This document shows, piece by piece, positions 29,892 to 45,781 of a stretch of DNA of 64,000 nucleotides (positions are counted from its first letter, which is position 1; every line of letters starts with the position of its first letter). This DNA comes from an uncultured Planctomycetaceae bacterium (GTDB lineage Bacteria > Planctomycetota > Planctomycetia > Planctomycetales > Planctomycetaceae), in contig CAWFGE010000021.1 in NCBI GenBank assembly GCA_963815195.1, positions 1-64,000 of the forward strand. Reading direction: 5' to 3'. The position numbers and the translations under genes are program-made. Below the pieces are notes generated by a model. The model did not search any database. It had not been told where the DNA came from and saw only the letters and a list, made by a program, of their open reading frames with translations.

Positions 29892-31373
29892 ATGAGCACG
29901 GCCATCACCTCTGCCTCGGCGTCCGAACTCTTGAGCCGGCTGGAACAGCGCGAGATCTCCGCGGTGGAAGTCGCCCGCGCGTTTTTGGACCGCGTCCAGG
30001 AAACCGATGCCGGGATCGGGGCGTTTCTTTCAATCCAAGCCGATGAAGCTCTCGCCCAGGCGGAACGGATCGATCGAAAGCGAACCGCCGGCGAACCGCT
30101 CGGATCCTTAGCGGGGTTGCCTCTGGGCATCAAGGATGTGATCTGCACCAAGGGCCAGACCACGACCTGTGCCAGCCGGATGCTGGCGAATTTCGTCCCG
30201 CCCTACGATGCTCATGTGATTGAAAAGCTCAAGGCCGCCGATGCGGTGCTGTTGGGCAAATTGAACATGGACGAGTTCGCGATGGGTTCGTCCAGCGAGA
30301 ATTCCGCGTTCAAGCCGGTCCGCAATCCCTGGGACGCCGCCCGCACGCCCGGCGGATCGAGCGGCGGTTCCGCGGCCGCGGTCGCTGCGCGGATGATTCC
30401 CGTCGCGCTCGGCAGCGATACGGGCGGCTCCATTCGCCAACCCGCGGCGTTCTGCGGCGTCGTGGGTCTCAAACCCACTTACGGCCGGGTCTCGCGTTAC
30501 GGGCTCGTCGCCTTTGCGAGTTCGCTCGATCAAATCGGCCCCGTGGCAAGCGATGTCGCCGGGGCCGCCCTGTTGATGGAAACCATCGCCGGCCACGATC
30601 CCCGCGATTCCACCTCGATCAATCTCCCGGTCCCCCGATACCGCGCGACGTTGGAACAGCCGCTCGACGGTCTGAAAATCGGCATCGCGGCCGAGCATTT
30701 CGGGGAAGGTTTGAATCCGACGGTCGAAGAAGCCACGCGAACCGCGGTCAAGGTTTACGAATCCCTGGGAGCCGAGGTCCGCGAAATCCATCTGCCGCAT
30801 TCCCGTTATGCGGTGGCGACGTATTATCTGATCGCCCCCTCCGAAGCCTCGAGCAATCTCGCCCGTTACGACGGCGTGCATTACGGCTTTCGTTCGCCGA
30901 ATTTTGATCCGAAAAACATGATCGACATGTACGAGACCACTCGCGGCGAAGGCTTCGGGGCCGAGGTGAAACGCCGAATTATGATCGGCACCTACGCCCT
31001 CTCCGCGGGCTATTACGATGCGTACTACCTCAAAGCCCTCAAAGTTCGCCGGCTGATCCGGAGCGACTTCGACAAGGCGTTTGAAGCAGTCGATCTGATC
31101 GCCTCGCCCGTCACGCCCGCGCCGCCGTTTAAGATCGGCGAGTTGGTGGACGATCCGCTGGCGATGTATCTCTCGGACATCTATACCTTAAGCGCAAATC
31201 TCGCAGGGCTGCCGGGGATTTCGATTCCCTGCGGCCAGGCGACCGAAGACGGAAAGACGCTGCCTATTGGCCTGCAACTATTGGCTCCGCCGTTTGAAGA
31301 AGAACGCCTCCTCCGCGCGGCCCGCATGTACGAACGCGAAACCGATTGGCACAAACTGCAGCCCGAATTGTGA
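29892..31373 (+). CDS. gatA: Asp/Glu-tRNA amidotransferase subunit A
   Basis: [51 protein letters not shown]. Confidence 0.97.
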
Positions 31374-31524: not shown

Positions 31525-33040
31525 ATGAACGCGACCCTGATTGTTGGTCTGGAAGTTCACGTTCAGCTGCTCACGCGGACGAAAATGTTTTGCGGCTGCG
31601 TGAACCGCTTCAATCCCGACCAGCCCAATACGCAGACCTGCCCGGTCTGCCTGGGTCTGCCCGGGCAGCTTGCCGGTGATGAACCGCCAGGCGTTTCGGT
31701 CTGCGCTCGAAATCGGCGCTGGCTCTCAACTGCGAAATCGCCCCGTTCACCAAGTGGGACCGCAAGCAGTATTACTACCCCGACTTGCCGAAGGCTTATC
31801 AGATCAGCCAATACGATCTGCCCTTCAGCCACGATGGCTGGATGGAGGTCGAAGTGCCCGCGGGCAAAAACAGCGAGCCGGAAGTCAAACGTGTGCGGAT
31901 CATCCGAGCCCATCTCGAAGAAGACGCCGGCAAGAACATGCACGACGAGACCGGCGCGGGGGCGACAGCCGGGTCGACCTCAACCGTTGCGGCACGCCGC
32001 TGGTGGAGATCGTCTCCCAGCCCGATATCCGTTCGCCGCCAGGAGGCGAAAGCGTATCTGGAAGAACTGCGATCTGATGCTGACGTACCTGGGCGTCTCC
32101 GACTGCAACATGCAGGAAGGCAGCCTCCGCTGCGATGCCAACGTCAATCTGCACATTCCCGCCGACGATGGCGAGCACCATCGCCACGCCGATCGTGGAG
32201 GTCAAAAACCTCAACAGCTTTCGCGGCGTCGAGGCGGCCATCGAGTTCGAAGCCCAGCGGCAATGGTCGACGAATACCAAAAGACCGGCCGCAAGCTCGG
32301 CGACCCCGGCGGCGAAAAGGAGACCCGCGGCTGGGACGCCGAACCGCAGCCTGACCTTCTCCCAGCGAGGCAAGGAAGAAGCCGCCGACTACCGCTATTT
32401 CCCCGACCCCGATCTGATGCCCGTCACCGTGACGGCCGACAAAATCGAATCCGTCAAAAACCGGCCTCTGCGAGTTGCCCGCCGGCGCCGGCAGCGGATT
32501 CGCGAGACCTGGGAATTGTCCGCGTACGATGCCGCGGTCATCATCGATCAGGGCCAAGCCTTCGCGGATTATTTCGAGGCGGTCGCCAACAAGTGCGGCG
32601 ACGGCAAACAGGCCGCCAACTGGGTCACGCAGGATGTCCAGCGGGAATTGAACGACCGGCAGATTTCCATCGCGGAGTTTCCCATTGTTGCGGCGATTTT
32701 GGGCACGCTTTTGCAATTTTTGGCCGAGGGAAAGATCACCGTCAAAAGCGGCCGCGAAGTGTTTGCGGACCTGTTATCCGAAGCTGACGCCGGCAACAAT
32801 CTCGCCCCCGGCCGCATTGCGGAGATCATCGAGGAGAAAGGTCTCGAAGTCGTGTCCGACACGGGCGCATTGGAGGGCATTATCAATGCGGTCGTGGAGC
32901 GGAATCCAAAAGCGGTCGAGGATTTCAAGAACGGCAAACAGGCCGCGGTCGGGGCGCTGATCGGCCACGTGATGCGCGAAGTCAAAGGGGCGGATGCCAA
33001 GATCGTCCGCCAGATGCTCATCGATCGGATGAATCAGTGA
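31525..33040 (+). CDS. gatB: Asp/Glu-tRNA amidotransferase subunit B, several frameshifts between ~31660 and 32500
   Basis: [68 protein letters not shown] spread over different frames. Confidence 0.92.
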
Positions 33041-33457: not shown

Positions 33458-33646
33458 GATTTGATCTCGGCTTCTTCACGCGGGTTTGCAATAGGAGCGG
33501 GTTGGGGTTCATCATAGAAGCCCCAGAGAGAACGGTCCATTCTGGCACAGCAAACGGTTCGCCAAAGCGCCGACTTTCCGCGCCGCTTCCGTTATAGTTG
33601 CAGAAAGAACTCCCGTTTGCAGCCTTTGATCTGGAAGGAATCGCCC

Positions 33647-35059
33647 ATGCGGCCCTTTGTCCTCGTGTGTTTTTTTGCCATCCTTTTTAGTCCAAGCCCG
33701 TGGCTTTACGGGCAAAGCGCGCGGCCGAATTTTTTGATCATCCTGGCGGACGATTGCACGCACAGCGAATTGCCGGTTTATGGCGGGGCCAACGCGAAAA
33801 CGCCGAACATCGACCGCCTCGCGAAACAGGGGCTGGTGTTTAACCGGGCGTATGTGAGCGAAGCCATGTGCCAGCCCTGCCGCTCGGAGCTTTACACCGG
33901 GCAGCATCCGCTGCGGAACGGGTCATCCTGGAATCACTCGGCCAGCCGGCCCGATGCCACGAGCGTGGCTCAGCACCTGGGGGCGTTGGGTTATCGCGTG
34001 GGACTCGCCGGCAAGGTCCACGTCCAGCCGGCGAAGGTGTTTGCGTTTGAGCACGTCGGCGGCTACGATCCGAACTGCGTCCGCTCGCCCACGCTGCCCC
34101 ATACCACGGAACAGATCACCGGGTTCATGGAGCGGGACGACAAGCAGCCGTTCTGCCTCGTGGTGGCGCTCGTGGAACCGCACGTGCCCTGGGTCATGGG
34201 CGATCCGTCGCAGTATCCGCCGAGGAAACTTAAACTGCCCCCGAACCTCGCGGATACGAAAGTCACCCGCGAAGCCTACTCCCGCTACCTCGCGGAGATC
34301 ACTTACATGGACAACCAGGTCGGCGAGATTCTGGATGTGCTCAAAAACACAGGGCAAACCGACGACACGCTGGTCTTTTTCAGCTCCGAGCAAGGGGCGC
34401 AGTTCCCGGGCTGCAAGTGGACGAACTGGGACTCGGGCCTGCATACCGCACTCATCGCCCGTTGGCCGGGACATGTTCCCGAAGGAAAACGCACCGACGC
34501 CATCGTGCAATACGCCGACGTCCTGCCCACGCTGCTCGCACTGGCGGGCGGCGATGCGAAGAAGCACGCCTACGACGGCACGAGCTTTCTGGCGGCGCTC
34601 AAGGACCCGAATCAACCGCACCGCAAGTACGCGTATGCCCTGCATAACAATGTGCCCGAAGGCCCGCCCTACCCGATCCGCAGCATCAGTAACGGCGAGT
34701 ACCGCTACATCCGAAACCTCACCCCCGATGAGATCTACATCGAAAAACATCTCATGGGCTTAACAGGCCAGGGCACCTTGAACAATCCCTATTGGGGCAC
34801 GTGGATGTTCAATATCGACAACCCCCGCACGCTCAGCCTCGTCAAGCGCTACATGAAGCGCCCCGCCGAGCAGCTTTACCACACCAAGACCGATCGGTAT
34901 GAGATGACCGACCTCGCCGGCGATCCGAAGTATTCCAAAATCCAAGCCGAGCTGAGCGGCGAACTCGACCGCTGGCTCAAAGCCCAAGGCGACCCGGGCA
35001 TCCCTTTGGACACCTACGAATCCCTCGAAGCCGCCCGCAATGGGCAACATGCGTATTAG
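33647..35059 (+). CDS. Sulfatase (N-sulfoglucosamine sulfohydrolase-like)
   Basis: PNFLIILADD, TPNIDRLA, CQPCR (CxPxR), GKVHV, signal peptide. Confidence 0.92.
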   Translation: MRPFVLVCFFAILFSPSPWLYGQSARPNFLIILADDCTHSELPVYGGANAKTPNIDRLAKQGLVFNRAYVSEAMCQPCRSELYTGQHPLRNGSSWNHSASRPDATSVAQHLGALGYRVGLAGKVHVQPAKVFAFEHVGGYDPNCVRSPTLPHTTEQITGFMERDDKQPFCLVVALVEPHVPWVMGDPSQYPPRKLKLPPNLADTKVTREAYSRYLAEITYMDNQVGEILDVLKNTGQTDDTLVFFSSEQGAQFPGCKWTNWDSGLHTALIARWPGHVPEGKRTDAIVQYADVLPTLLALAGGDAKKHAYDGTSFLAALKDPNQPHRKYAYALHNNVPEGPPYPIRSISNGEYRYIRNLTPDEIYIEKHLMGLTGQGTLNNPYWGTWMFNIDNPRTLSLVKRYMKRPAEQLYHTKTDRYEMTDLAGDPKYSKIQAELSGELDRWLKAQGDPGIPLDTYESLEAARNGQHAY

Positions 35060-35092: not shown

Positions 35093-36422
35093 ATGGTCAC
35101 GCATCTTCCCGTGGAGCGTTTGGTGAATCTGTTGGACCCGGCGGCCAATCAGATTTGGGGGATGTCCGTCCACGACGCGACGGCAATCGTGGGCAGCGGC
35201 GATGTGGAGCGGATTCGCGGGATCGACGGCCATTTTGCGCTGCTCCACAAAGACGGGCAGCGGATTCGCATGGCCCGCTCGCTCGCGCGGCCGATGCGGT
35301 ATTTTCTCGCGAAACGCAGCGAAGGTCCTTGCCTTGTCGTCGCGGAGCGGATCGATGAAATTCAAGAGTTCCTGAAAGAGGAAGGCCTGGGCGGGCAGTT
35401 CCATCCGTCGTACACCCGCATGGTCCCGGCCCATCATTTGACGGAACTCCAACTCATCGGCTGCCCGGATCCCAATCCCACCGTTCACCGGTTCTTCGCG
35501 CCCGGCAAAATCGGCTGCCTGCGGATCTCGACGAGATCGGCTCAGCTTATATCGGCCGGCTTGCCGAGGAATGCGGGCATTGGCTGGACGGGCTCGACCC
35601 GCGGGAGCCGATTGGCGTCCTGTTCTCCGGCGGCATCGACAGCGGCTCGGTGCTGTTGGTGCTTTATCATTTGCTCTTGGAGCGCGGCGAGCGCCCGCCC
35701 GGCTCAAGGCATTCACGCTGTCGATCGATGGCCAAGGTGCCGACGCCCGGCAGTCGGTCGAGTTCTTGAAGGCTGTGGATCTCGGCATGCTGCTCGAGGT
35801 GATCGAAATCCCGGCCGGCTCGATCGATTACCGCGAGGCGGTGCGGATCATCGAGGACTATAAACCCCTCGACGTGCAAGCCGCCGCGATGGGAAACGCC
35901 CTGTGCAAGGGCATTCGCGCGAGGTATCCGGATTGGCGCTGCCTCGTGGACGGCGATGGCGGGGACGAGAACCTCAAGGACTATCCCATCGAAGACAATC
36001 CCGAACTCACGATCCGCAGCGTGTTCAATAATGTGATGCTGTACCAGGAAGGCTGGGGCGTAAACGCCGTCAAGCATTCGCTGACCTACACCGGCGGCCA
36101 GAGCCGGGGGCATGTTCGTTCCTGGGCCCCGGCTCGGCGGCTGGGGTTTTCGGGATTCAGCCCGTATGCCCTGCCGAACGTGATCGAAGTCGCCGAGGGC
36201 ATTCCGTTTATCGAACTCACCGATTGGGACCACGAACGGCTGTATTCGCTCAAAGGCGAAATCGTCCGCCGAGGCGTCGAGGCCGTCACCGGGTTGGAGA
36301 TGCCGGTGTTCGCCAAACGGCGGTTCCAGCATGGCGTCAGCAAGGAGGCGGAGTTCGCGCGACTGTTCCCGCAGGATGAAGCCTCCTACCGCCAGGCCTT
36401 CGCCGAGATCTATGCTGGATAA
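35093..36422 (+). CDS. Asparagine-synthetase-like ATP pyrophosphatase, frameshifts near 35520 and 35695
   Basis: PP-loop EPIGVLFSGGIDSG in the intermediate frame, DGDGGDE, KRRFQHG; degenerate Ntn domain without Cys1. Confidence 0.8.
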
Positions 36423-37362
36423 CATTCCCTTCTATCAGGACGCGGAAATCCTCGCGGCCCGCCCGCCGCGGAACGTCTTGGGTCCCCGCCGGCCTTATGC
36501 GTTCCTCGTCGAACCGGAGCACAACGCCCGGGGCGAAGTTGTGGACGTGGCGACGCTGTTTCTCACCAATCGCGAATGCCCGTTCCGCTGCCTGATGTGC
36601 GATCTGTGGAAGAACACGTTGACGGAATCCGTCTCCCCCGGCGACATTCCCGCGCAGATTCGCTGGGCCCTCAAGCAACTCCCGCCCGCGCGGGAGATCA
36701 AGCTTTATAACAGCGGGAATTTCTTTGACAAAAAGGCGATTCCCCCGGAGGATTACGCCGCGATCGCGGAATTGGTGCGCGGGTTTGAGACGGTGATCGT
36801 GGAGAATCATCCCCAACTCGCGTGCGAGGCCTGCCGGCGATTTCGGGATCTGATCGCCCCGGCTCGGCTCGAAATCGCGATGGGCCTCGAAACCTGCCAT
36901 CCCGAAATCCTGCCCCGCTTGAACAAACGCATGACGCTCGCGGACTTCGACCGGGCCGCGGGTTTTTTGCAGCAAGCGGGGATCCGCCTGCGGGTGTTTT
37001 TGCTCTTAAAGCCGCCGTTTCTCGAGGAAGCGGAAGCGGTGGAGTGGACGCTGCGGTCTTTGGACTATGCCTTCGACCGCGGGGCCGAGTGTTGCTCGAT
37101 CATCGCCACCCGCGCGGGGAACGGGATCATGGATCAATTGCAGGCGCAGGGACTCTTTTTGCCGCCGCGGGGAAGTTTTTTGGAGCAGGTGCTGGAAGCA
37201 GGACTCCATCAAGAGCGCGGGCGGGTGTTTGTGGACCTCTGGGAAGTCGAGCCGTTTTTTGATTGTGTCCATTGCCGACCTGAGCGGATCGAACGGCTGC
37301 GGGAGATGAACCTTTGGCAAAAGGTGTTGCCATCGATCCCGTGCGCGGAGTGCGAAGCATGA
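36412..37362 (+). CDS. Radical SAM protein resembling the archaeosine RaSEA (TIGR01210-type) family
   Basis: CPFRCLMC, IKLYNSGNFFD, VENHP, LEIAMGLET, FLLLKPPFL. Confidence 0.85.
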   Translation: MLDNIPFYQDAEILAARPPRNVLGPRRPYAFLVEPEHNARGEVVDVATLFLTNRECPFRCLMCDLWKNTLTESVSPGDIPAQIRWALKQLPPAREIKLYNSGNFFDKKAIPPEDYAAIAELVRGFETVIVENHPQLACEACRRFRDLIAPARLEIAMGLETCHPEILPRLNKRMTLADFDRAAGFLQQAGIRLRVFLLLKPPFLEEAEAVEWTLRSLDYAFDRGAECCSIIATRAGNGIMDQLQAQGLFLPPRGSFLEQVLEAGLHQERGRVFVDLWEVEPFFDCVHCRPERIERLREMNLWQKVLPSIPCAECEA

Positions 37363-38873
37363 CCGCCCGCGATCGCTATGATGTCCTCGTTTTGGGTTCG
37401 GGATTCGGCGGCAGTCTGACGGCGATGATTTTAGCTCAGGCGGGGTTGTGCGTGGGAATGATCGATTCCCGCAAACATCCGCGGTTTGCGATTGGCGAAT
37501 CGTCGACGCCGAGCGCGGATCTGATTCTCCACGACCTCGCGAAAAAATATCATCTCACCGAGCTATTGCCGTTGTCCCGCTTCGGCACCTGGCGGGAGAC
37601 TTATCCCGAAATCCTCTGCGGCGCGTAGCGCGGGTTCACTTATGTCTGGCACGGCGAAGAAGACGGTTTCCAAGCCACTCCGGACCATCGGCACGAACTG
37701 TTTGTCGCGGCGAGCGCTTCCCGCGAGGTCGCGGATACAGAGTGGTATCGCCCGCAGGTGGATCAGTTCTTCGCGAAAGCCGCTCGAAACCGCGGGGCGG
37801 ACTTGTGGGAAGAAGCGAGGATCGCCCGCATCGAGCATCCCCAACCGCACGCCTGGCGAGTTACGATTCAATCTGGCGGCAAAGAGCGCCGGCTCGATGC
37901 GGATTTTCTGATCGATGCCACCGGACCGGCGGGCGTCCTGCCCCGGCATTTGGGGATTTCCGATCAAACCGATTCCCTGCTGACAAACTCTTCCGCCGTT
38001 TACGGGCATTGGGAGGAGATCGAACCCTTGGAGAATTGGTTAAGGCGGCGAGGGGCGAAGACGGACGATTATCCTTACCCGTGCGACGACTCCGCGATCC
38101 ATCACGTCTTCCCCGACGGCTGGACCTGGCAGTTGCGGTTCGAGAACGGGCTGACCAGCCTGGGCTCCGTGTTTGTTCCGGGCCGCGAAATCGATTCGAT
38201 GACGGAAGCCGATTCATTGTTGACGCAAAATCGCCTCGTGCTCCGCGAGATGCTCGCCGCGGCGAAACGGGCGGCGTTTCCGGGGCGGTTGTTTTGGACG
38301 GGGCGCATGCAGCGGCTCTGGGCCCAAGCCGCGGGCGAGGATTGGGCGGCCCTTCCGCACACCGCGGGCTTCATCGATGCTCTGCATAGCACGGGCATCG
38401 CCCACACCTTGAGCGGGATGGAACGGCTCTCGGAAACTCTCTTGGAATCGTCGCCCCCACACCGGCAACAAGCGTTGGAACGGTATTCGCGTCAAATCCT
38501 GGAAGAGTTAGCGCACATCGATTTGTTGGTCTCAGGGTGTTACTTCGGTCTCTATGATTTCCGGTTATTCAGCACCTGGTGCCACGTGTATTTCGCCGCC
38601 GCGACGACGTACGAAAAAAAACGCCTCGCCGATTCTTCCAACGACGTGGGCTTTCTGTGTGCCGGCGATCGCGAGTTCGCCCGGCGGGTTCGCGAGTTGC
38701 ACGCCTGGCTGCAAAGGTTTCATCAAAAATCTGAGAAACCGAACGACGCCGTGGTGCGGGAATTTGAGGAGTCCGTCAAACAACAGATCGAACCCTATAA
38801 TCACGTGGGATTATTCGATCCGCCGGTCCCGAACCTGTATTGGCACACCGCCGCGGAGAAGCGTGGCGACTAA
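37359..38873 (+). CDS. Flavin-dependent halogenase-like oxidoreductase with an in-frame TAG at 37626-37628
   Basis: GSGFGG, HPRFAIGES, LIDATG, GWTWQLRF, AGFIDALHSTG; same frame on both sides of the TAG. Confidence 0.85.
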
Positions 38874-39050
38874 AAGCGCGGGTTTCCACGGCCGGGCGAC
38901 TCGTGGACGAGTGCGTTCCCGAATCAAGGAATCAAGCGTCGCCGGGGAGTTTCTCTGGAGCGAAGCGCGGGAATGTGCTAGATTGCCCCCACGCGAGCGT
39001 GCCGGCGGATGGTGCGCGCGGAGACCCGTATTTGCAGGAGAGACGCGACG

Positions 39051-39683
39051 ATGTTGGGAGCCCACCTCAATCCCTTGGAATACCTGAGCCGCTGCTCGGA
39101 GGAGTTCGGCAAACTCGACCTTAGCCAGTCCGAAGGCCTGGCCCTGGAGATTTTTGACACCTACGAAGACGGGCGGTTTGTGTTCATCTGCGGCAACGGC
39201 GGCAGCGGGTCGAACTCGTCCCACTTCTGCGAAGACTTGGGCAAAAGCACGCTCGACCCCCAGGATTTTACGAACGACGATGTGAAACGCCTCAAGGTGC
39301 TCAGCCTCACCGACAACACGCCCTACATCCTCGCCTGGGGCAACGATGAGGGCTTCGACCGCGTGTTCGTCGAGCAGCTCAAAAACTTCGCGTCGCCCGA
39401 TGATGTGCTCGTCGCCATCAGCGGCAGCGGCAACAGCCCCAACATTCTGAACGCCGTCGAATGGGGCAACAAGCACAACCTCCGCACCTGGGGCATCACC
39501 GGCTACAGCGGCGGCAAGCTGCAATCCCTCGCCCGGCACAACCTGCACGTCCCGCTGGACGATATGGGCATGGTGGAATCCATCCACCTGTTGTTGTTCC
39601 ACTGGATCCTGAATGATGTGTATGCCCGCATCAACCAGGTCGGCCGCTATGCCGACGGGAAAAAAGGCTCCAAAGTCGCCTGA
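39051..39683 (+). CDS. gmhA: SIS-domain phosphoheptose isomerase-like protein
   Basis: [40 protein letters not shown]. Confidence 0.85.
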
Positions 39684-39791: not shown

Positions 39792-42680
39792 TCAGCCGAA
39801 TTGCAGTTTGACATCCGTGATTTCGTAACCGTTCATGGGGACGTGGACCGCGGCGTTTTCGATGTCGAGGGTGTCCAGGGTTTGGCCTAGAAAGTCGCAG
39901 GCGGCCGCAGCGGTCGGGGTGCGGAAGCAATCGAGCTGCACGTGGCGGGAACGGCCTTCGGTCTCGGCGAGGCGGACGATGAAGCCGAACGGCTCGTCGG
40001 CTGCCGCGTCTTCGGGAAGGCCGCGAAGGCTTTGAATCTGCACATTCTTCGCGGCGAGATGGAAGAACCAGCCTTCGGGGCCGGTGCGCGGCGGGCCGGC
40101 TTCGGTGGGGATGACGAGCGCCGGCGTCATCGCATCCCGGGCCGCGACCTGCGGGTAGCTTTGATCGATGGCAATGTCGAACTTGAAGCTCCGCCGGCTT
40201 TCGCCCGCGGTGATCAATAACGTATCCAGCATCCTCAGGCCCGTCTTGCGGTGGAACGGCTGCCCGTGAAAGAGCACCGTGGTCCGCAGGTCGCCCTCGG
40301 CGATTTCCAGATAATCGGGGCTGTCGAACCGCTCGCCGCGAAAGCCGAACGCGAAATCCTGCACCGAACGGGTGAGCGCGGCCGTGCTGTCGTTCCAGGC
40401 GAAGCGGAGCGCGTAATAGTTCGTCCAAGGGTCGGCGTCGGGGACTTTTTGCAGGTCGAGTTCGATCTCGACTTCCACCACCGGCCGATGCCGCCAGACC
40501 CGCGTGGTCTGTTTGAAGAATGCCAAGGGCGATTCATCTTTTTGATCGACGATGTCCCCCGTGGTCACCACTTCGCCGAGCGTCGGGCCGGTGCAGGTGG
40601 CTTCGATGGACCCGCAGCGCATCTCGGAATAGAACGTTTTGATCGTCTCGTGCTCGTTTTGCTCGTTGGGATGGCCGAGGGGCACGCTGCGCTCGTGCGG
40701 AAAGCGGTAGCCGATCTGCTGGCTGATGCGGTTGGGGCTCCGGCCGTAGTTTTTGATCCGCCCGATCCCGCCGGTGGCATCGTTCATGTAGACTTCAAAA
40801 AAGTCGTTCCGCAGCATCAAATCTTCTACAAGCGGCGGCTCGCCTTTTTTGGCGGCGGGTTTGGGACCCTGGCCATCTTTGGGAACCCACACAAACCCGG
40901 AGCCCGGGATCTCCGCGACGACGAACCGGCGGTTGTCGTCGAATTGCACCGCCTTGATGCCCCCTCCCACCGGCGGCGGGGATTCCAACTGCGGCAGTTC
41001 CACCGAGACCGTCCGCTTGTGCGCCAACGTGTTGACGAGCAGAAAGCCGGCGTTCGATTCCGCCCCGGAAAGCACGACTTCCGCGAGCTGTTCCTCGGCT
41101 GCGGTTTGAAACTCCTGAAGCGCGAGTTCCGCGGCGGGAATCGCCTCGGCATGCTCGGCGGATTCTTCGCAATCGGGGCCGGCTTTCTCGACGATCTGTT
41201 CAATCGCATCGAGCCGGGATTGATCGACCCGTTGGCCTCGGAGAATTTGCGAAACCGCCCAGGCCCATTGGGCTCGCTCCAACTGCCTTCGGCGGAGGGC
41301 ATAGTTGGCCCAGCGACTGACGGGGTTCGGCTCTTGCCGGGCCGCGGCTTGGATGAAAAACGGCGGCAGGTACTCCTGCTGATCGAACACCGACAGCCGG
41401 CCGGGGTCGTCCGTGTTTTCCATGAAGTCGCCCATTGTCACAAACCGCCCGAGCACGGGGGCGTACTTCTGCATTCTGGCGAGATCCTCGAACCAGGGGG
41501 CTTTGACTTCCGGCCAGCGGGCAAACACGACCGCGGCCACCTGGTCGCGCTCCATCGACTCCGCCATGTGCTGGGCGAATTTTAAGTAGCTCAGCGACCC
41601 TTCGGCGGTCATCGGAAACCGGCCGAGGGCATTGATGATCGTCTGGTCGGCGCCTTCCCAGCGGATCTTGCTCTCGTCCTCGTCGGGATAAAGGCCATCG
41701 TCCATGACCAGATGCAGGGCCGAGCGAAAACCGAACTTTGTCAGAACCCCCGGAAGCAGCGTCGATAACCCATACCGCCGCCGGCCCCAGCAACTCGGCG
41801 TTCGGCCGAACAGCCGCCGATACGCCCTTTGGCCTTCCGCGAACTGCCAGAGCACGGCGCCTATGGGCATCAACGGGAACGGGGCATCTTCCCATTCCCC
41901 GCCGACGACGTTCAGCCGCCCCGCGTCCCAGGCTTCGCGAAGGGCGGCGATCGTTTCGGGCGATTTGTCGTGGATTTCCTGAAGCTCCTCCGCCGTCGCC
42001 ACGAGGTTGACGGGTTTCTCCGCCGCGGCCATTTTCAACAGCGGCTCGCGCTGCTCCTCGGCGATGCGGGGGATCAACAGGCACAGGTCGATCAGGTAGC
42101 ATTCGACGGGATAAAACCGCTCGCGGGCTTCGAGGAGCGATTCAAACGCCCCCCGCAGGTGGTTCCGCGCGGTGTCGAGATCGCCGGCGATCGCCGCCTC
42201 CGCCGCGGCGAGGCTTTCGCGCTCGAGTTGCACTTCATCGAGGTTGCTGTAGTAGTGCATGTGCCGGGTGAGAAGTTCCATTTGCAGATAGCACGTCCCG
42301 AGCGCAAGGAAATCCGCCGCGATGTCTTCATCGACCGGGGCGGGATTCTCCAGCGGGGCCAAGGCCTTCGCGAGCATGTCCGCACGGTTTTCCAGACCGG
42401 AAACGACGACGGCTCCCTGTTTTTCGGCATAGCCCACCCAACCCCCCGGCAGCCAGTCCTCGCAGGCGGTGGGCACCACGATCAGCCGATTCTCCAAAGT
42501 AGCGGGCGGCTCGTCCGAGCGGTCCCACCTCGGCAGCGTCTTCGCCTGCTGCAACAACAGCGGATGCCACACGACGGCAAAGGCGTTCAGCAAACTCGCC
42601 GCCGGCTGCTCTTGGAGTTCGGTCGGAAAATCTTCCAGAGAATGGCTGGGAATCAAAACGACAATATCGGTGTAAGTCAT
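39792..42680 (-). CDS. Hypothetical protein, possibly GH38/alpha-mannosidase-like fold
   Basis: Long ORF with C-terminal IVRLAETEG...CDFLG...YEI segment typical of GH38 C-termini; catalytic motifs not evident. Confidence 0.6.
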   Translation of the reverse strand: MTYTDIVVLIPSHSLEDFPTELQEQPAASLLNAFAVVWHPLLLQQAKTLPRWDRSDEPPATLENRLIVVPTACEDWLPGGWVGYAEKQGAVVVSGLENRADMLAKALAPLENPAPVDEDIAADFLALGTCYLQMELLTRHMHYYSNLDEVQLERESLAAAEAAIAGDLDTARNHLRGAFESLLEARERFYPVECYLIDLCLLIPRIAEEQREPLLKMAAAEKPVNLVATAEELQEIHDKSPETIAALREAWDAGRLNVVGGEWEDAPFPLMPIGAVLWQFAEGQRAYRRLFGRTPSCWGRRRYGLSTLLPGVLTKFGFRSALHLVMDDGLYPDEDESKIRWEGADQTIINALGRFPMTAEGSLSYLKFAQHMAESMERDQVAAVVFARWPEVKAPWFEDLARMQKYAPVLGRFVTMGDFMENTDDPGRLSVFDQQEYLPPFFIQAAARQEPNPVSRWANYALRRRQLERAQWAWAVSQILRGQRVDQSRLDAIEQIVEKAGPDCEESAEHAEAIPAAELALQEFQTAAEEQLAEVVLSGAESNAGFLLVNTLAHKRTVSVELPQLESPPPVGGGIKAVQFDDNRRFVVAEIPGSGFVWVPKDGQGPKPAAKKGEPPLVEDLMLRNDFFEVYMNDATGGIGRIKNYGRSPNRISQQIGYRFPHERSVPLGHPNEQNEHETIKTFYSEMRCGSIEATCTGPTLGEVVTTGDIVDQKDESPLAFFKQTTRVWRHRPVVEVEIELDLQKVPDADPWTNYYALRFAWNDSTAALTRSVQDFAFGFRGERFDSPDYLEIAEGDLRTTVLFHGQPFHRKTGLRMLDTLLITAGESRRSFKFDIAIDQSYPQVAARDAMTPALVIPTEAGPPRTGPEGWFFHLAAKNVQIQSLRGLPEDAAADEPFGFIVRLAETEGRSRHVQLDCFRTPTAAAACDFLGQTLDTLDIENAAVHVPMNGYEITDVKLQFG

Positions 42681-42713
42681 TGCGGGGAAGCACTTTCTAT
42701 TGGCGGCTTTTTT

Positions 42714-42947
42714 AGACCCAAAGGGTCGCAAGGATAACTTTGATTACCACGAAGACGCGAACAATAAAACACGTTTTCAACGGAATTCGCCAGCGTAGCC
42801 CGAAGTGCAAGCGAGGGAATACGAAGGCTTTACAAACCCTTGCTTGCGCTGCGGGCTAGTTTTCGGGTTAGGTCTTAGAGTTCGAATCCGCTTCCGTTGC
42901 ACAATCTTTGCCCTCTGCGTCTTGCCATTGCGGCTTTGCGTCAAAAG
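42714..42947. repeat. Nested REP-like repeats
   Basis: Outer CCAAAGGGTCGCAAG ... CTTTGCGTC element encloses TAGCCCGAAGTGCAAGCGAGGG ... CCCTTGCTTGCGCTGCGGGCTA. Confidence 0.65.
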
Positions 42948-43408
42948 TGAATGCAGGAGAAGTTTTGAATTTTCGGGAACTCTGGGGACTCAGGAAACGT
43001 CGCATATTCATGCGGGGTTGTTTTCAGTCCCGAATCCTCTCAATCCTTTCCAAAAATCACCAACATTTCGAACGAATGCCAACATCGGCTGCATATCTAC
43101 CGTAGGAACATGATATAGAAAACTTGATGCGACTTCATGGGGAACACCGGGGCGGTCCCGGTCCTTTCCTGGAAGATTGGCGGCTAATTTGCCGAGGTTT
43201 CCGTTTATTATTGACTTTTGCAAAACTGCTGTGTTAGCTTAGGTTTAGGAAAAAGTTTGCATTCTGCACACTTCTTGAGTCTCACGATCCTTTCAAAACT
43301 TCCTCCCCCGTCTGGGGGGAGTTAATTCACGATTAAAGTCCATTCGTTCCCGGGTTCGCCTGGAACCTGGGAATCATGCTGGCGTTTTTCTCTGGAGAAG
43401 ACAACACC

Positions 43409-45781
43409 ATGGCGGAAAATCAAGGTGTCTGGGGCATTGAAATTGGTCAGGCGGGCCTTAAGGCGATCCGCCTGCGTTATGCGGAAGCCGCCGAGCAGGT
43501 GTTGGCGGTGGCGTTCGATTATGTTCCGCACCCCAAGATTTTGAGTCAACCCGACGCCGTGCCTTCTGAATTGATCCCCCAGGCGCTCAGCAAGTTTCTC
43601 GAGCGCAACGATCTCAAGGGGGATAAGGTCGTGATCAGCGTGCCCGGGCAGACGGCTCTTGCGCGGTTCATCCAACTCCCGCCGGTGCCGGCTCCCAAGG
43701 TTCCGGAGATCGTCAAGTTCGAGGCCCGCCAGCAGATTCCGTTCGCCCTCGAAGACGTGATCTGGGATTATCAGGTGCTCTCGGTGGGCAGCGAAGAAGC
43801 GGACTTCATGCTGGATGCCGAGGTCGGGTTGTTCGCGATGAAGCGCGACCAGGTGCTGGAGCAGCTCAACCCGTTCACGGCGTTCAAGGTGGAAGTCGAT
43901 CAAATTCAGATCGCTCCCTTGGGGCTCTATAACGTCCTGTATTATGACCAGATGGGGCTCCGCCTGGACGGGGAAGAGAAAAGCCGCGACGAGCATTACA
44001 TCATTCTCGACATGGGCGCGGACAACACCACCCTCGTCGTGACCAATGGGGCGAAGATCTGGATCAGAAACGTCCCCGTGGGCGGGAACCACTTCACGCG
44101 GGCGCTGACCAAGGAAATGAAGCTGACATTCGCCAAGGCCGAGCATCTCAAATGCAACGCCACCAAGTCCCCCGATCCGCGGGCGGTGTTCAAGGCGCTG
44201 CAGCCCGTGTTTAACGACTACGTCTCGGAAATCCAGCGGTCGATCGGGTATTTTTCGAGCGTGAATCGCAGCGCCAAGATCAAAAAGCTGATCGGCGTGG
44301 GCAACGGGTTCAAGCTGGCGGGCCTGCAGAAATTCCTCCAGCAAAACCTGACGCAATTCGAAGTCGAACGGCTCTCGGGCTACAAGGCGTTGGTCGGCGA
44401 CAACGTGCTCAACGCGAACCTGTTCGAGGAAAACCTGCTCACCTTCGCCGTGCCTTACGGGCTGGCACTTCAGGGGCTCGACCTCACGAAGATCCACACG
44501 AGTCTGTTGCCGCCGGAGATTGCGACCGCCCGCAAGATCCGCGAGAAAAAGCCCTGGGCGGCGGCCGCGGCCGCCGCGATGCTGGTCGGCGTTTCGCTGT
44601 CGGCGGTCGGTTATGCCCGCGTGCAGGATTCGGTGAGTACGGAGCGGTTTGGAGAGGCCGAGCAAAAAGTCGCCGGCTTCAATTCCACCGTGACCAATTT
44701 CAAGACCGAGTACGAGACCCGGACGAAAAAGCACGATGAGATCGTGGCCACGGGGCGGGTGTTGATCGATCAACTCAACGCCCGCGAGAACTGGCTGGAA
44801 GTTTATAAGGCGATCAATGACTGCCTGCCTCACGAGGAGGGAAAAGACTTCGACGAGAAGAATATCGAGCTGCGAAACCTGATGAAGCTGAAAGTGATCA
44901 ACGTCCAGAAGCTGCCGGATCTGGATACGATGTGGTATGCGAAGCTGCTGCCCAACCAGTACGGTTCGATGCAGAAAAATGACCTCAAGCCGCCCAAAGG
45001 TCCGGGGTATCTGTTTACGCTGCAGGGATGCCATTATCACCACGAGGAAAAAAAGGAGATCATGCAGGCGGACACCTATGTGAAACACACGCTGCTAAAG
45101 AACCTCCAACAATGGGCCACGAAGGAGCACTATGCGCCGGTGCGGAAGATCGGGATCACGCATGCCGTCATGATCTATGCGGACACCAACCCGAAGCTTT
45201 ACTGGTACTCGCCGGACCTCCGCGAGCAAAGGCTGCTCATGGGTCAGCAGCCGGGGGTGGGAAACTTCGGCGGCACGGGAGACATGGGAGACGAGGCCGG
45301 GGCTCCGGCGGCCCCGATGCCCATGGGCGAGGAAGGCGAAGAAGGCGGCGTCAAGCCGGCCGACGTTTCCAATCGCCAGAAAATCCACCGCACCGAGTTC
45401 ATGATCCAGTTTGTCTGGCAGCCGGTGCCCAAGGATGAGCGAGAGGTCAACAACATCATGTACGACCAGCTCATCGCCTACCAGGCCCAGAACAAGAACC
45501 TGGATTTGCCGTTCGATCAAATCCAGCAGGCCGTGAACGAGAAGAATAAAAAAATCGCGGAAAGCAACGCGAAAACCCGGGACGACAACGCCACGTTGCC
45601 CGAAGGCGACGCCAGCCGGCAACCCCTACAGGAGCCGCTGAAAGTCACGCAGGAGCAATACGACGCCTTCAAGCAGAGGTTCATGGTGCCCGGAACGCCC
45701 GAGACCTATCCGAAAGGCGCGACGGCCCCGGCGGGCGGGGACAGCGCCGGTATGGACTCCGCGGCCGCCGACGGCCATTAG
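43409..45781 (+). CDS. pilM: Type IV pilus assembly protein PilM with long C-terminal extension
   Basis: WGIEIGQAGLKA, VKFEARQQIPF, LDMGADNT, GGNHFT, EIQRSIGYF, FAVPYGLALQG, then a TM segment and PilN-like region. Confidence 0.9.
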   Translation: MAENQGVWGIEIGQAGLKAIRLRYAEAAEQVLAVAFDYVPHPKILSQPDAVPSELIPQALSKFLERNDLKGDKVVISVPGQTALARFIQLPPVPAPKVPEIVKFEARQQIPFALEDVIWDYQVLSVGSEEADFMLDAEVGLFAMKRDQVLEQLNPFTAFKVEVDQIQIAPLGLYNVLYYDQMGLRLDGEEKSRDEHYIILDMGADNTTLVVTNGAKIWIRNVPVGGNHFTRALTKEMKLTFAKAEHLKCNATKSPDPRAVFKALQPVFNDYVSEIQRSIGYFSSVNRSAKIKKLIGVGNGFKLAGLQKFLQQNLTQFEVERLSGYKALVGDNVLNANLFEENLLTFAVPYGLALQGLDLTKIHTSLLPPEIATARKIREKKPWAAAAAAAMLVGVSLSAVGYARVQDSVSTERFGEAEQKVAGFNSTVTNFKTEYETRTKKHDEIVATGRVLIDQLNARENWLEVYKAINDCLPHEEGKDFDEKNIELRNLMKLKVINVQKLPDLDTMWYAKLLPNQYGSMQKNDLKPPKGPGYLFTLQGCHYHHEEKKEIMQADTYVKHTLLKNLQQWATKEHYAPVRKIGITHAVMIYADTNPKLYWYSPDLREQRLLMGQQPGVGNFGGTGDMGDEAGAPAAPMPMGEEGEEGGVKPADVSNRQKIHRTEFMIQFVWQPVPKDEREVNNIMYDQLIAYQAQNKNLDLPFDQIQQAVNEKNKKIAESNAKTRDDNATLPEGDASRQPLQEPLKVTQEQYDAFKQRFMVPGTPETYPKGATAPAGGDSAGMDSAAADGH

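Follow-up and report, generated by a model that had tools for sequence, protein, structure and literature searches.

The subject of this study is a set of three consecutive enzyme genes, which lie head to tail on the forward strand at positions 35093-38873 of a 64,000-nucleotide stretch of DNA from an uncultured Planctomycetaceae bacterium (assembly GCA_963815195.1, contig CAWFGE010000021.1, positions 1 to 64,000), referred to here as the window. They encode a ligase resembling asparagine synthetase B (AsnB) and beta-lactam synthetase (gene 1), a radical S-adenosylmethionine (SAM) enzyme resembling RaSEA (gene 2) and a flavoprotein resembling flavin-dependent halogenases (gene 3). The three genes form a real and conserved cassette, in which the combination is new while the kinds of enzyme are known: all three types are individually familiar from natural-product and RNA-modification chemistry, and the cassette proteins fail the equivalog tests for AsnB and RaSEA. 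Strong purifying selection acts on the cassette, and its distribution extends across phylum boundaries. A joint reading to which we give somewhat better than even prospects is that of a self-contained, co-inherited cassette that makes or tailors a small aromatic carboxylic acid, the interruptions of the window copy being assembly errors; the best reading of the product class is a small molecule of amide or lactam type that carries a halogen. In the portions of the literature accessible to a full-text search, no pathway is described that combines such a ligase, radical SAM enzyme and halogenase, and nothing there contradicts an earlier note on this DNA, made from the letters alone, which knew of no characterised pathway of this kind. 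The ammosamide and nitrilobacillin pathways were considered as matches and rejected, as both depend on a precursor peptide according to the accessible text of the respective papers (PMC12715798, PMC13060819).

The first line of evidence is the joint conservation of the three genes. Of 41 related genomes, 15 were found to contain the radical SAM gene, 13 the ligase gene and 15 the flavoprotein gene; the trio is complete in 12 of the 16 genomes with any member, and 25 of the 41 have none. The three genes are adjacent at 7 of 12 loci of the relatives, and in the genomes G005, G010, G017 and G019 the members lie apart yet co-occur, in G005, G017 and G019 on different contigs. Four related genomes have one or two members only; G020 is cut by a contig end, and G016 and G024 are 78-79% complete. 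In G012 (100% complete, 740 contigs), the ligase was not found with the query used. The ligase is also widespread, being encoded by at least 594 stretches (594 of 599 pattern matches) in contigs from one genome per species. In the best 80 of these loci, with ligase identities of 61-82%, the trio stands in the same order in 40, the ligase is accompanied by the radical SAM gene in 8 and stands alone in 32, five of the latter ending within 850 nt of the gene. The best 80 loci belong mostly to Planctomycetota, with others from Rhodothermales, Balneolaceae (Fodinibius roseus), Chitinophagaceae, Flavobacteriaceae, Vicinamibacterales, Acidobacteria and Pedosphaera, and the order ligase, radical SAM enzyme, halogenase holds across Planctomycetota, Rhodothermales, Bacteroidota and Acidobacteriota. 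Cultured carriers include Novipirellula rosea JCM 17759, Fodinibius roseus DSM 21986 and Maioricimonas rarisocia. A set of 80 metagenome loci contained 28 with the trio in this order, 29 with ligase and radical SAM enzyme and 23 with the ligase alone; where at least 2600 nt of downstream sequence was available (36 loci), the numbers were 20, 10 and 6, respectively. Conservation of the three genes as a unit, on which the earlier note had staked its proposal, is thus seen in the relatives as well as in the genome and metagenome loci. The ligase was detected in 8 of 251 genomes of an evenly drawn sample of the phylum, all from the window's own family; the cassette is accordingly patchy in its distribution and probably moves between lineages.

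The genes are tightly packed (Table 1). The ATG of gene 2 at 36412 lies upstream of the TAA of gene 1 at 36420-36422, resulting in an overlap of 11 nt, and the ATG of gene 3 at 37359 is interlocked with the TGA of gene 2 at 37360-37362 in an ATGA junction. Both junctions had been reported in the earlier note; they are confirmed in the sequence and recur in the same-genus genome G001 (locus L013: 4680-6008, 6001-6948 and 6948-8462). The further statement that the genes form one translational unit is not borne out by the deposited sequence, since the radical SAM gene is the only intact member of the trio in the window and the other two frames are broken. The family scores of the ligase and the matches of the flavoprotein to solved proteins given below are those of the G001 orthologues.

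Table 1. Features of the cassette and its surroundings in the window.
Feature	Position	Strand	Frame	Remarks
gatA	29892..31373			intact, directly upstream of gatB
gatB	31540..33040	+		at least four pieces in different frames
Sulfatase	33617..35059	+		flanking gene
Gene 1, piece 1	35093..35504	+	2	AsnB/beta-lactam-synthetase-like; N-terminal nucleophile (Ntn)-like domain without Cys1; residues 1-137 of the intact G001 orthologue, 90% identity (tblastn)
Gene 1, piece 2	35505..35690	+	1	PP-loop SGGIDSGS; G001 residues 139-202, 78% identity (tblastn); Pfam Asn_synthase E 0.0051
Gene 1, piece 3	35691..36422	+	0	synthetase domain, C-terminal portion; TAA stop 36420-36422; G001 residues 200-443, 89% identity (tblastn)
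Gene 2, radical SAM enzyme	36412..37362	+		316 aa, intact; TIGR01210/RaSEA 101 bits, PF04055 31.8 bits
Gene 3, flavin-dependent halogenase-like	37359..38873	+		504 codons, TAG-interrupted; pieces match PF04820 Trp_halogenase; 76% identity over 504 residues to the 505-aa G001 orthologue, one stop
In-frame TAG in gene 3	37626..37628	+		codon 90, catalytic-lysine position; Lys in G001
SIS-domain protein	39009..39683	+		flanking gene
GH38-like protein	39792..42731	-		979 aa, flanking gene
PilM-like protein	43376..45781	+		801 aa, flanking gene

The intact ligase of G001 comprises 443 aa. With 33 bits against Pfam PF00733 (Asn_synthase; cut-off 21), it can be assigned to the superfamily only, and it fails the equivalog test for asparagine synthetase B (TIGR01536; 32.5 bits, cut-off 267). 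A sequence-level search against solved chains gave no match at E up to 1. The AlphaFold model, built from 23 sequences, has a mean predicted local distance difference test score (pLDDT) of 89.8 and a predicted template modelling score of 0.90, and Foldseek placed beta-lactam synthetase first (1m1z, 1jgt and 1mc1; E about 4e-14, template modelling score 0.63-0.66), in a full-length alignment of about 447 columns with 16-18% identity. Human ASNS, E. coli AsnB, CarA (1q19, 1e-10) and TsnB9 follow. The PP-loop residues S179, G180, G181, D183 and S184 are invariant in 23 ligase sequences, and no conserved cysteine was detected in the first 40 columns of the 21-23 aligned ligases, the N-terminus reading MVTHLPVERL. 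Fold, invariant PP-loop and missing N-terminal cysteine together bear out the proposal that gene 1 encodes an AsnB-type PP-loop enzyme without the glutaminase residue Cys1.

Beta-lactam synthetase and CarA share the two-domain AsnB fold and the PP-loop with the ligase and are its best full-length structural matches; their N-terminal domain is likewise dead and without the cysteine nucleophile. However, the ligase shows no sequence-level match to them, its N-terminal domain has invariant residues of its own (R62, R69, F103, Y107 and P112), and it is accompanied by genes for a radical SAM enzyme and a halogenase rather than by clavam or carbapenem genes. Lactam formation in beta-lactam and carbapenam synthetase is catalysed by a Tyr-Glu dyad and a lysine. 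In the ligase, K409 and a KRRFQxG motif are invariant or nearly so and would at most be candidates for equivalent residues. The same superfamily includes, according to the accessible parts of the literature, the PesC nitrile synthetase, the C-terminal amidases TsrC/ScdTA, the lasso cyclases and Amm20, and its tailoring members turn a carboxylate into an amide, a lactam or a nitrile (PMC13060819, PMC12715798). PesC is described in the available text as using glutamine or ammonia and acting on a peptide (PMC13060819), whereas the cassette lacks Cys1 and has no precursor peptide in 160 loci. The ligase family is compact, with 760 representative clusters (50% identity) matching at E up to 0.001, and contains thousands of 90%-identity clusters that are named “asparagine synthase-related protein” or similar; all 8000 scored candidates matched. 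Solving the cassette would thus give a function to several thousand such clusters. A search of the ESM Atlas returned only the names of the protein's own family. Two distant relatives, P0127 and P0221 (42% and 30% identity), carry the source names Candidatus Berkelbacteria and Nanoarchaeota, and a metagenome search for closer kin of the divergent Berkelbacteria-type ligase returned main-family loci only.

The radical SAM enzyme contains a CX3CX2C motif (ECPFRCLMCDLW) and a C-terminal CxxC...CxxC motif; in 23 sequences, C56, C60 and C63 are invariant and the C-terminal motif is mostly conserved. TIGR01210/RaSEA is its only clear family match, with 98.6 bits for the G001 protein in addition to the score of the window protein (Table 1) and a cut-off of 212, the second-best family reaching an E value of about 0.01. 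The earlier designation as RaSEA-like survives on this basis, below the cut-off as it is. The AlphaFold model (pLDDT 95.6) was closest in fold to the radical SAM domain of Elp3, which is a generic result, and a complex prediction for ligase and radical SAM enzyme gave a score of 0.00 without controls, which speaks neither for nor against binding. The G012 orthologue (C463:7805-8806) has one frame, within which about 28 residues are inserted or duplicated. In archaeosine synthesis, as far as the accessible text describes it, ArcS attaches lysine as the nitrogen donor and RaSEA converts the adduct, for which a C-N cleavage is reported, the two enzymes acting as a complex (PMC11298593). The cassette resembles this system in that translation of the radical SAM gene is coupled to that of an enzyme without an ammonia source of its own. 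It differs in that the partner is an AsnB-type ligase instead of an ArcS/TGT-type protein, and the hosts are bacteria rather than Euryarchaeota.

For the flavoprotein, the closest solved relatives are the phloroglucinol halogenase PltM (2e-42) and the tetracycline 7-halogenase CtcP (4e-34), both over about 410 residues. In a set of 34 sequences, consisting of the G001 protein and 33 orthologues from other loci, the GxGxxG motif (GSGFGGS in the window) is conserved with G13 and G15 in 32 and G18 in 30 sequences, and K90 is invariant within a conserved G-x-K-R-G-F-S-Y motif. Alignment of CGSKRGFTY from G001 with CGIKLGFSF from PltM equates K90 with K87 of PltM, which is catalytic according to the available text, the K87A variant being inactive and the mutagenesis primer confirming the position (PMC6424973). 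Two tryptophans, W256 and W258, are invariant in all 34 sequences and are followed by leucine (31/34) and arginine (29/34). The hallmark motif of flavin halogenases is WxWxIP. From the sequence features, gene 3 would therefore encode a flavin halogenase of the PltM/CtcP type that has the main hallmarks except I-P, and the earlier classification as a halogenase-like protein dependent on flavin adenine dinucleotide is upheld by the two closest relatives and the invariant lysine. It shares with PltM and CtcP the GxGxxG motif, the aligned lysine and both tryptophans, and is set apart by the WxWx[LI]R motif and by the absence of pyoluteorin or tetracycline genes nearby. The L-R residues in place of I-P weigh against halogenation, as do weak matches to the hydroxylases QhpG (59 bits, 4e-16) and LodB, as well as to GoxB and UbiH-type hydroxylases, and would be expected if the protein were a hydroxylase or another monooxygenase and the product were hydroxylated instead of halogenated. 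We regard this as unlikely, since the solved proteins most similar to it are both proven halogenases, the two tryptophans are invariant, and the lysine that is essential in PltM, in the portion of the source available (PMC6424973), is retained in every sequence within its motif.

The interruptions of genes 1 and 3 in the window require a separate assessment. Translation of 35093-36424 in a single frame runs into stops, and when the DNA is aligned with G001 and G003, one base proves to be absent after 35504 and another near 35688-35690; together with the TAG in gene 3, this gives three breaks. Stop-codon recoding was ruled out, as in-frame TGA, TAA and TAG stand opposite many different residues, and so was programmed frameshifting, as the relatives carry a single frame. 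To place the breaks in context, 185 long open reading frames (ORFs; at least 300 aa) from 400 kb of G001 (contig C25) were compared with the whole genome of the window, G000. A frameshift or in-frame stop was present in G000 for 45 of 127 orthologous pairs (35%), and the 209 kb compared contained 36 frameshifts and 49 stops, or 0.41 breaks per kb, at which rate 1.5 breaks are expected in 3.78 kb and three or more occur with P = 0.20. In a separate count, the distinct in-frame stop codons in the G000-G001 alignments were TGA (29), TAA (16) and TAG (11). The fragmentation of gatB, which is the sole GatB_N locus in the genome and lies downstream of an intact gatA, is a clear sign of many indel errors in the assembly. 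Furthermore, contigs from a public sequencing run (X1) that are 98.5-100% alike to the window are intact at two of the three break sites, with an additional G behind 35690 and GCT AAG (Ala-Lys) where the window reads GCG TAG.

Taken together, the genome-wide break rate, the fragmented gatB and the intact X1 sites make it most likely that both frameshifts and the TAG arose as errors in a noisy assembly and do not reflect biology; an intact cassette is thus probably present in the organism itself. Two limits of X1 weigh against this conclusion. Its contigs leave 35503-35564, which includes the first frameshift site, as well as 36072-36875 and 38216-38617 uncovered, and elsewhere, over about 2.3 kb, they disagree with the window at 11 further bases, one contig at 7 of 466, so that X1 represents a close relative, possibly another strain, and not the identical sequence, which leaves room for a strain-specific loss. 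If the breaks were real mutations, the cassette would be degenerating in this strain; a total of three breaks within 3.8 kb, including one that falls precisely on the catalytic lysine codon, in a cassette that is dispensable in that it was not found in 25 of 41 relatives, could be read in this way. However, such decay appears very improbable, because the genome-wide rate alone predicts half of the breaks seen here, the interruption of 35% of the long orthologues and of the only gatB is not credible for a living cell, and the gene pieces are still 76-90% identical to G001 without further decay. Since the assembly is error-ridden, the window copy is a poor exemplar of the cassette, and with this level of noise in the G000 sequence, oddities of single genes call for suspicion and should not be taken for biology.

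With sequence errors as the preferred explanation of the breaks, the function of an intact cassette can be considered. In the proposed scheme, the Cys-less ligase would adenylate a carboxylate and join it to an external or internal amine, yielding an amide or a lactam, as its fold and motifs suggest. The RaSEA-like enzyme may then carry out a radical step on the ligase adduct, possibly a C-N cleavage if the sub-cut-off homology to RaSEA extends to the chemistry, and the flavoprotein, judging by its invariant catalytic lysine, would chlorinate or brominate an electron-rich ring. A small molecule is favoured because all three proteins are acidic (median isoelectric point 5.5-6.0), free phenolics are the substrates of PltM and CtcP, the solved proteins closest to the flavoprotein, no conserved target gene lies adjacent to the cassette, and one locus contains an inserted exporter gene. 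The modification of tRNA or nucleosides, which the earlier note had listed as an option, received no positive evidence: in addition to the acidic proteins, no ArcS or TGT recurs as a neighbour in 80 loci, a genome-wide search for ArcS not having been made. If the proposed scheme applies, the cassette could reveal a new bacterial use of RaSEA-type radical chemistry and a new class of halogenated metabolites in Planctomycetota.

Several points weigh against the proposed scheme. The score of the radical SAM enzyme is less than half of the RaSEA cut-off, and its chemistry may differ accordingly; the conservation of the ligase is more typical of core functions; and the cassette lies in housekeeping surroundings without a conserved regulator or transporter, which is unusual for a natural-product cluster. 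The very conserved ligase and the housekeeping flanks without regulator or exporter would also be expected of a cassette that modifies a macromolecule, such as a tRNA or rRNA nucleoside or a protein-derived cofactor. Further indications in this direction are the RaSEA family as the only clear match of the radical SAM enzyme, the fold similarity of the latter to Elp3, a tRNA modifier, the weak matches of the flavoprotein to the protein-cofactor modifiers QhpG (59 bits) and LodB/GoxB, and the distant ligase kin named from Berkelbacteria and Nanoarchaeota, which have small genomes and little secondary metabolism. We nevertheless consider a macromolecular target decidedly improbable. The three proteins are acidic, the alignment with beta-lactam synthetase extends over the whole ligase model, so that no extra RNA-binding domain is seen, and no conserved target gene stands beside the cassette. 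Moreover, the flavoprotein is far closer to PltM and CtcP (2e-42) than to QhpG (4e-16), and the distribution is patchy, with 8 of 251 genomes in the phylum sample.

Within the small-molecule reading, a more specific scheme can be formulated, to which we attach only a low probability, namely that ligase and radical SAM enzyme constitute a glutamine-independent route to a primary amide or amidine and that the halogenase decorates the aromatic product. The Cys-less ligase would use an amino acid, possibly held by the invariant arginine and tyrosine residues of its N-terminal domain, as the donor whose amine is coupled to the adenylated carboxylate, and the RaSEA-like enzyme would cut the C-N bond of the donor so that the nitrogen stays behind, as in the ArcS-RaSEA system with lysine. 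If true, a logic that ArcS and RaSEA apply to archaeal tRNA would thereby be at work in the small-molecule metabolism of bacteria.

The neighbourhood of the cassette was examined for further components. A fourth conserved gene was not found, the next neighbour cluster occurring in 14 of 80 genome loci, and the flanks of 14 loci with only ligase and radical SAM enzyme consist of unrelated housekeeping genes. Conserved small ORFs were likewise not detected, the maximum being 6 of 160 loci with apparent shadow frames of neighbouring genes; a ribosomally synthesised and post-translationally modified peptide with a hidden precursor was ruled out on this basis. In agreement with the earlier note, which saw no precursor peptide or carrier protein in the window, none is conserved in the loci examined. 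A defence system was considered and rejected, as none of the three proteins has a PADLOC match. A scan of the locus for promoters and terminators gave background levels only. None of the genes flanking the cassette in the window (Table 1) is kept next to it in the relatives. The upstream gene in G001 differs from that in the window and resembles, as judged by eye, isocitrate/isopropylmalate dehydrogenase at its N-terminus. Genes inserted into the cassette, namely exporter, transposase and amidohydrolase genes, are one-offs. The exporter is encoded in a Rhodothermales locus by an SMR-type small membrane transporter gene between the radical SAM and halogenase genes (L065:10344-10688, forward strand). 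The other two insertions were recognised by eye in metagenome loci, where a transposase-like gene (L178:8406-9086, reverse strand) and an amidohydrolase-like gene (L128:7419-9185, forward strand) lie inside the cassette.

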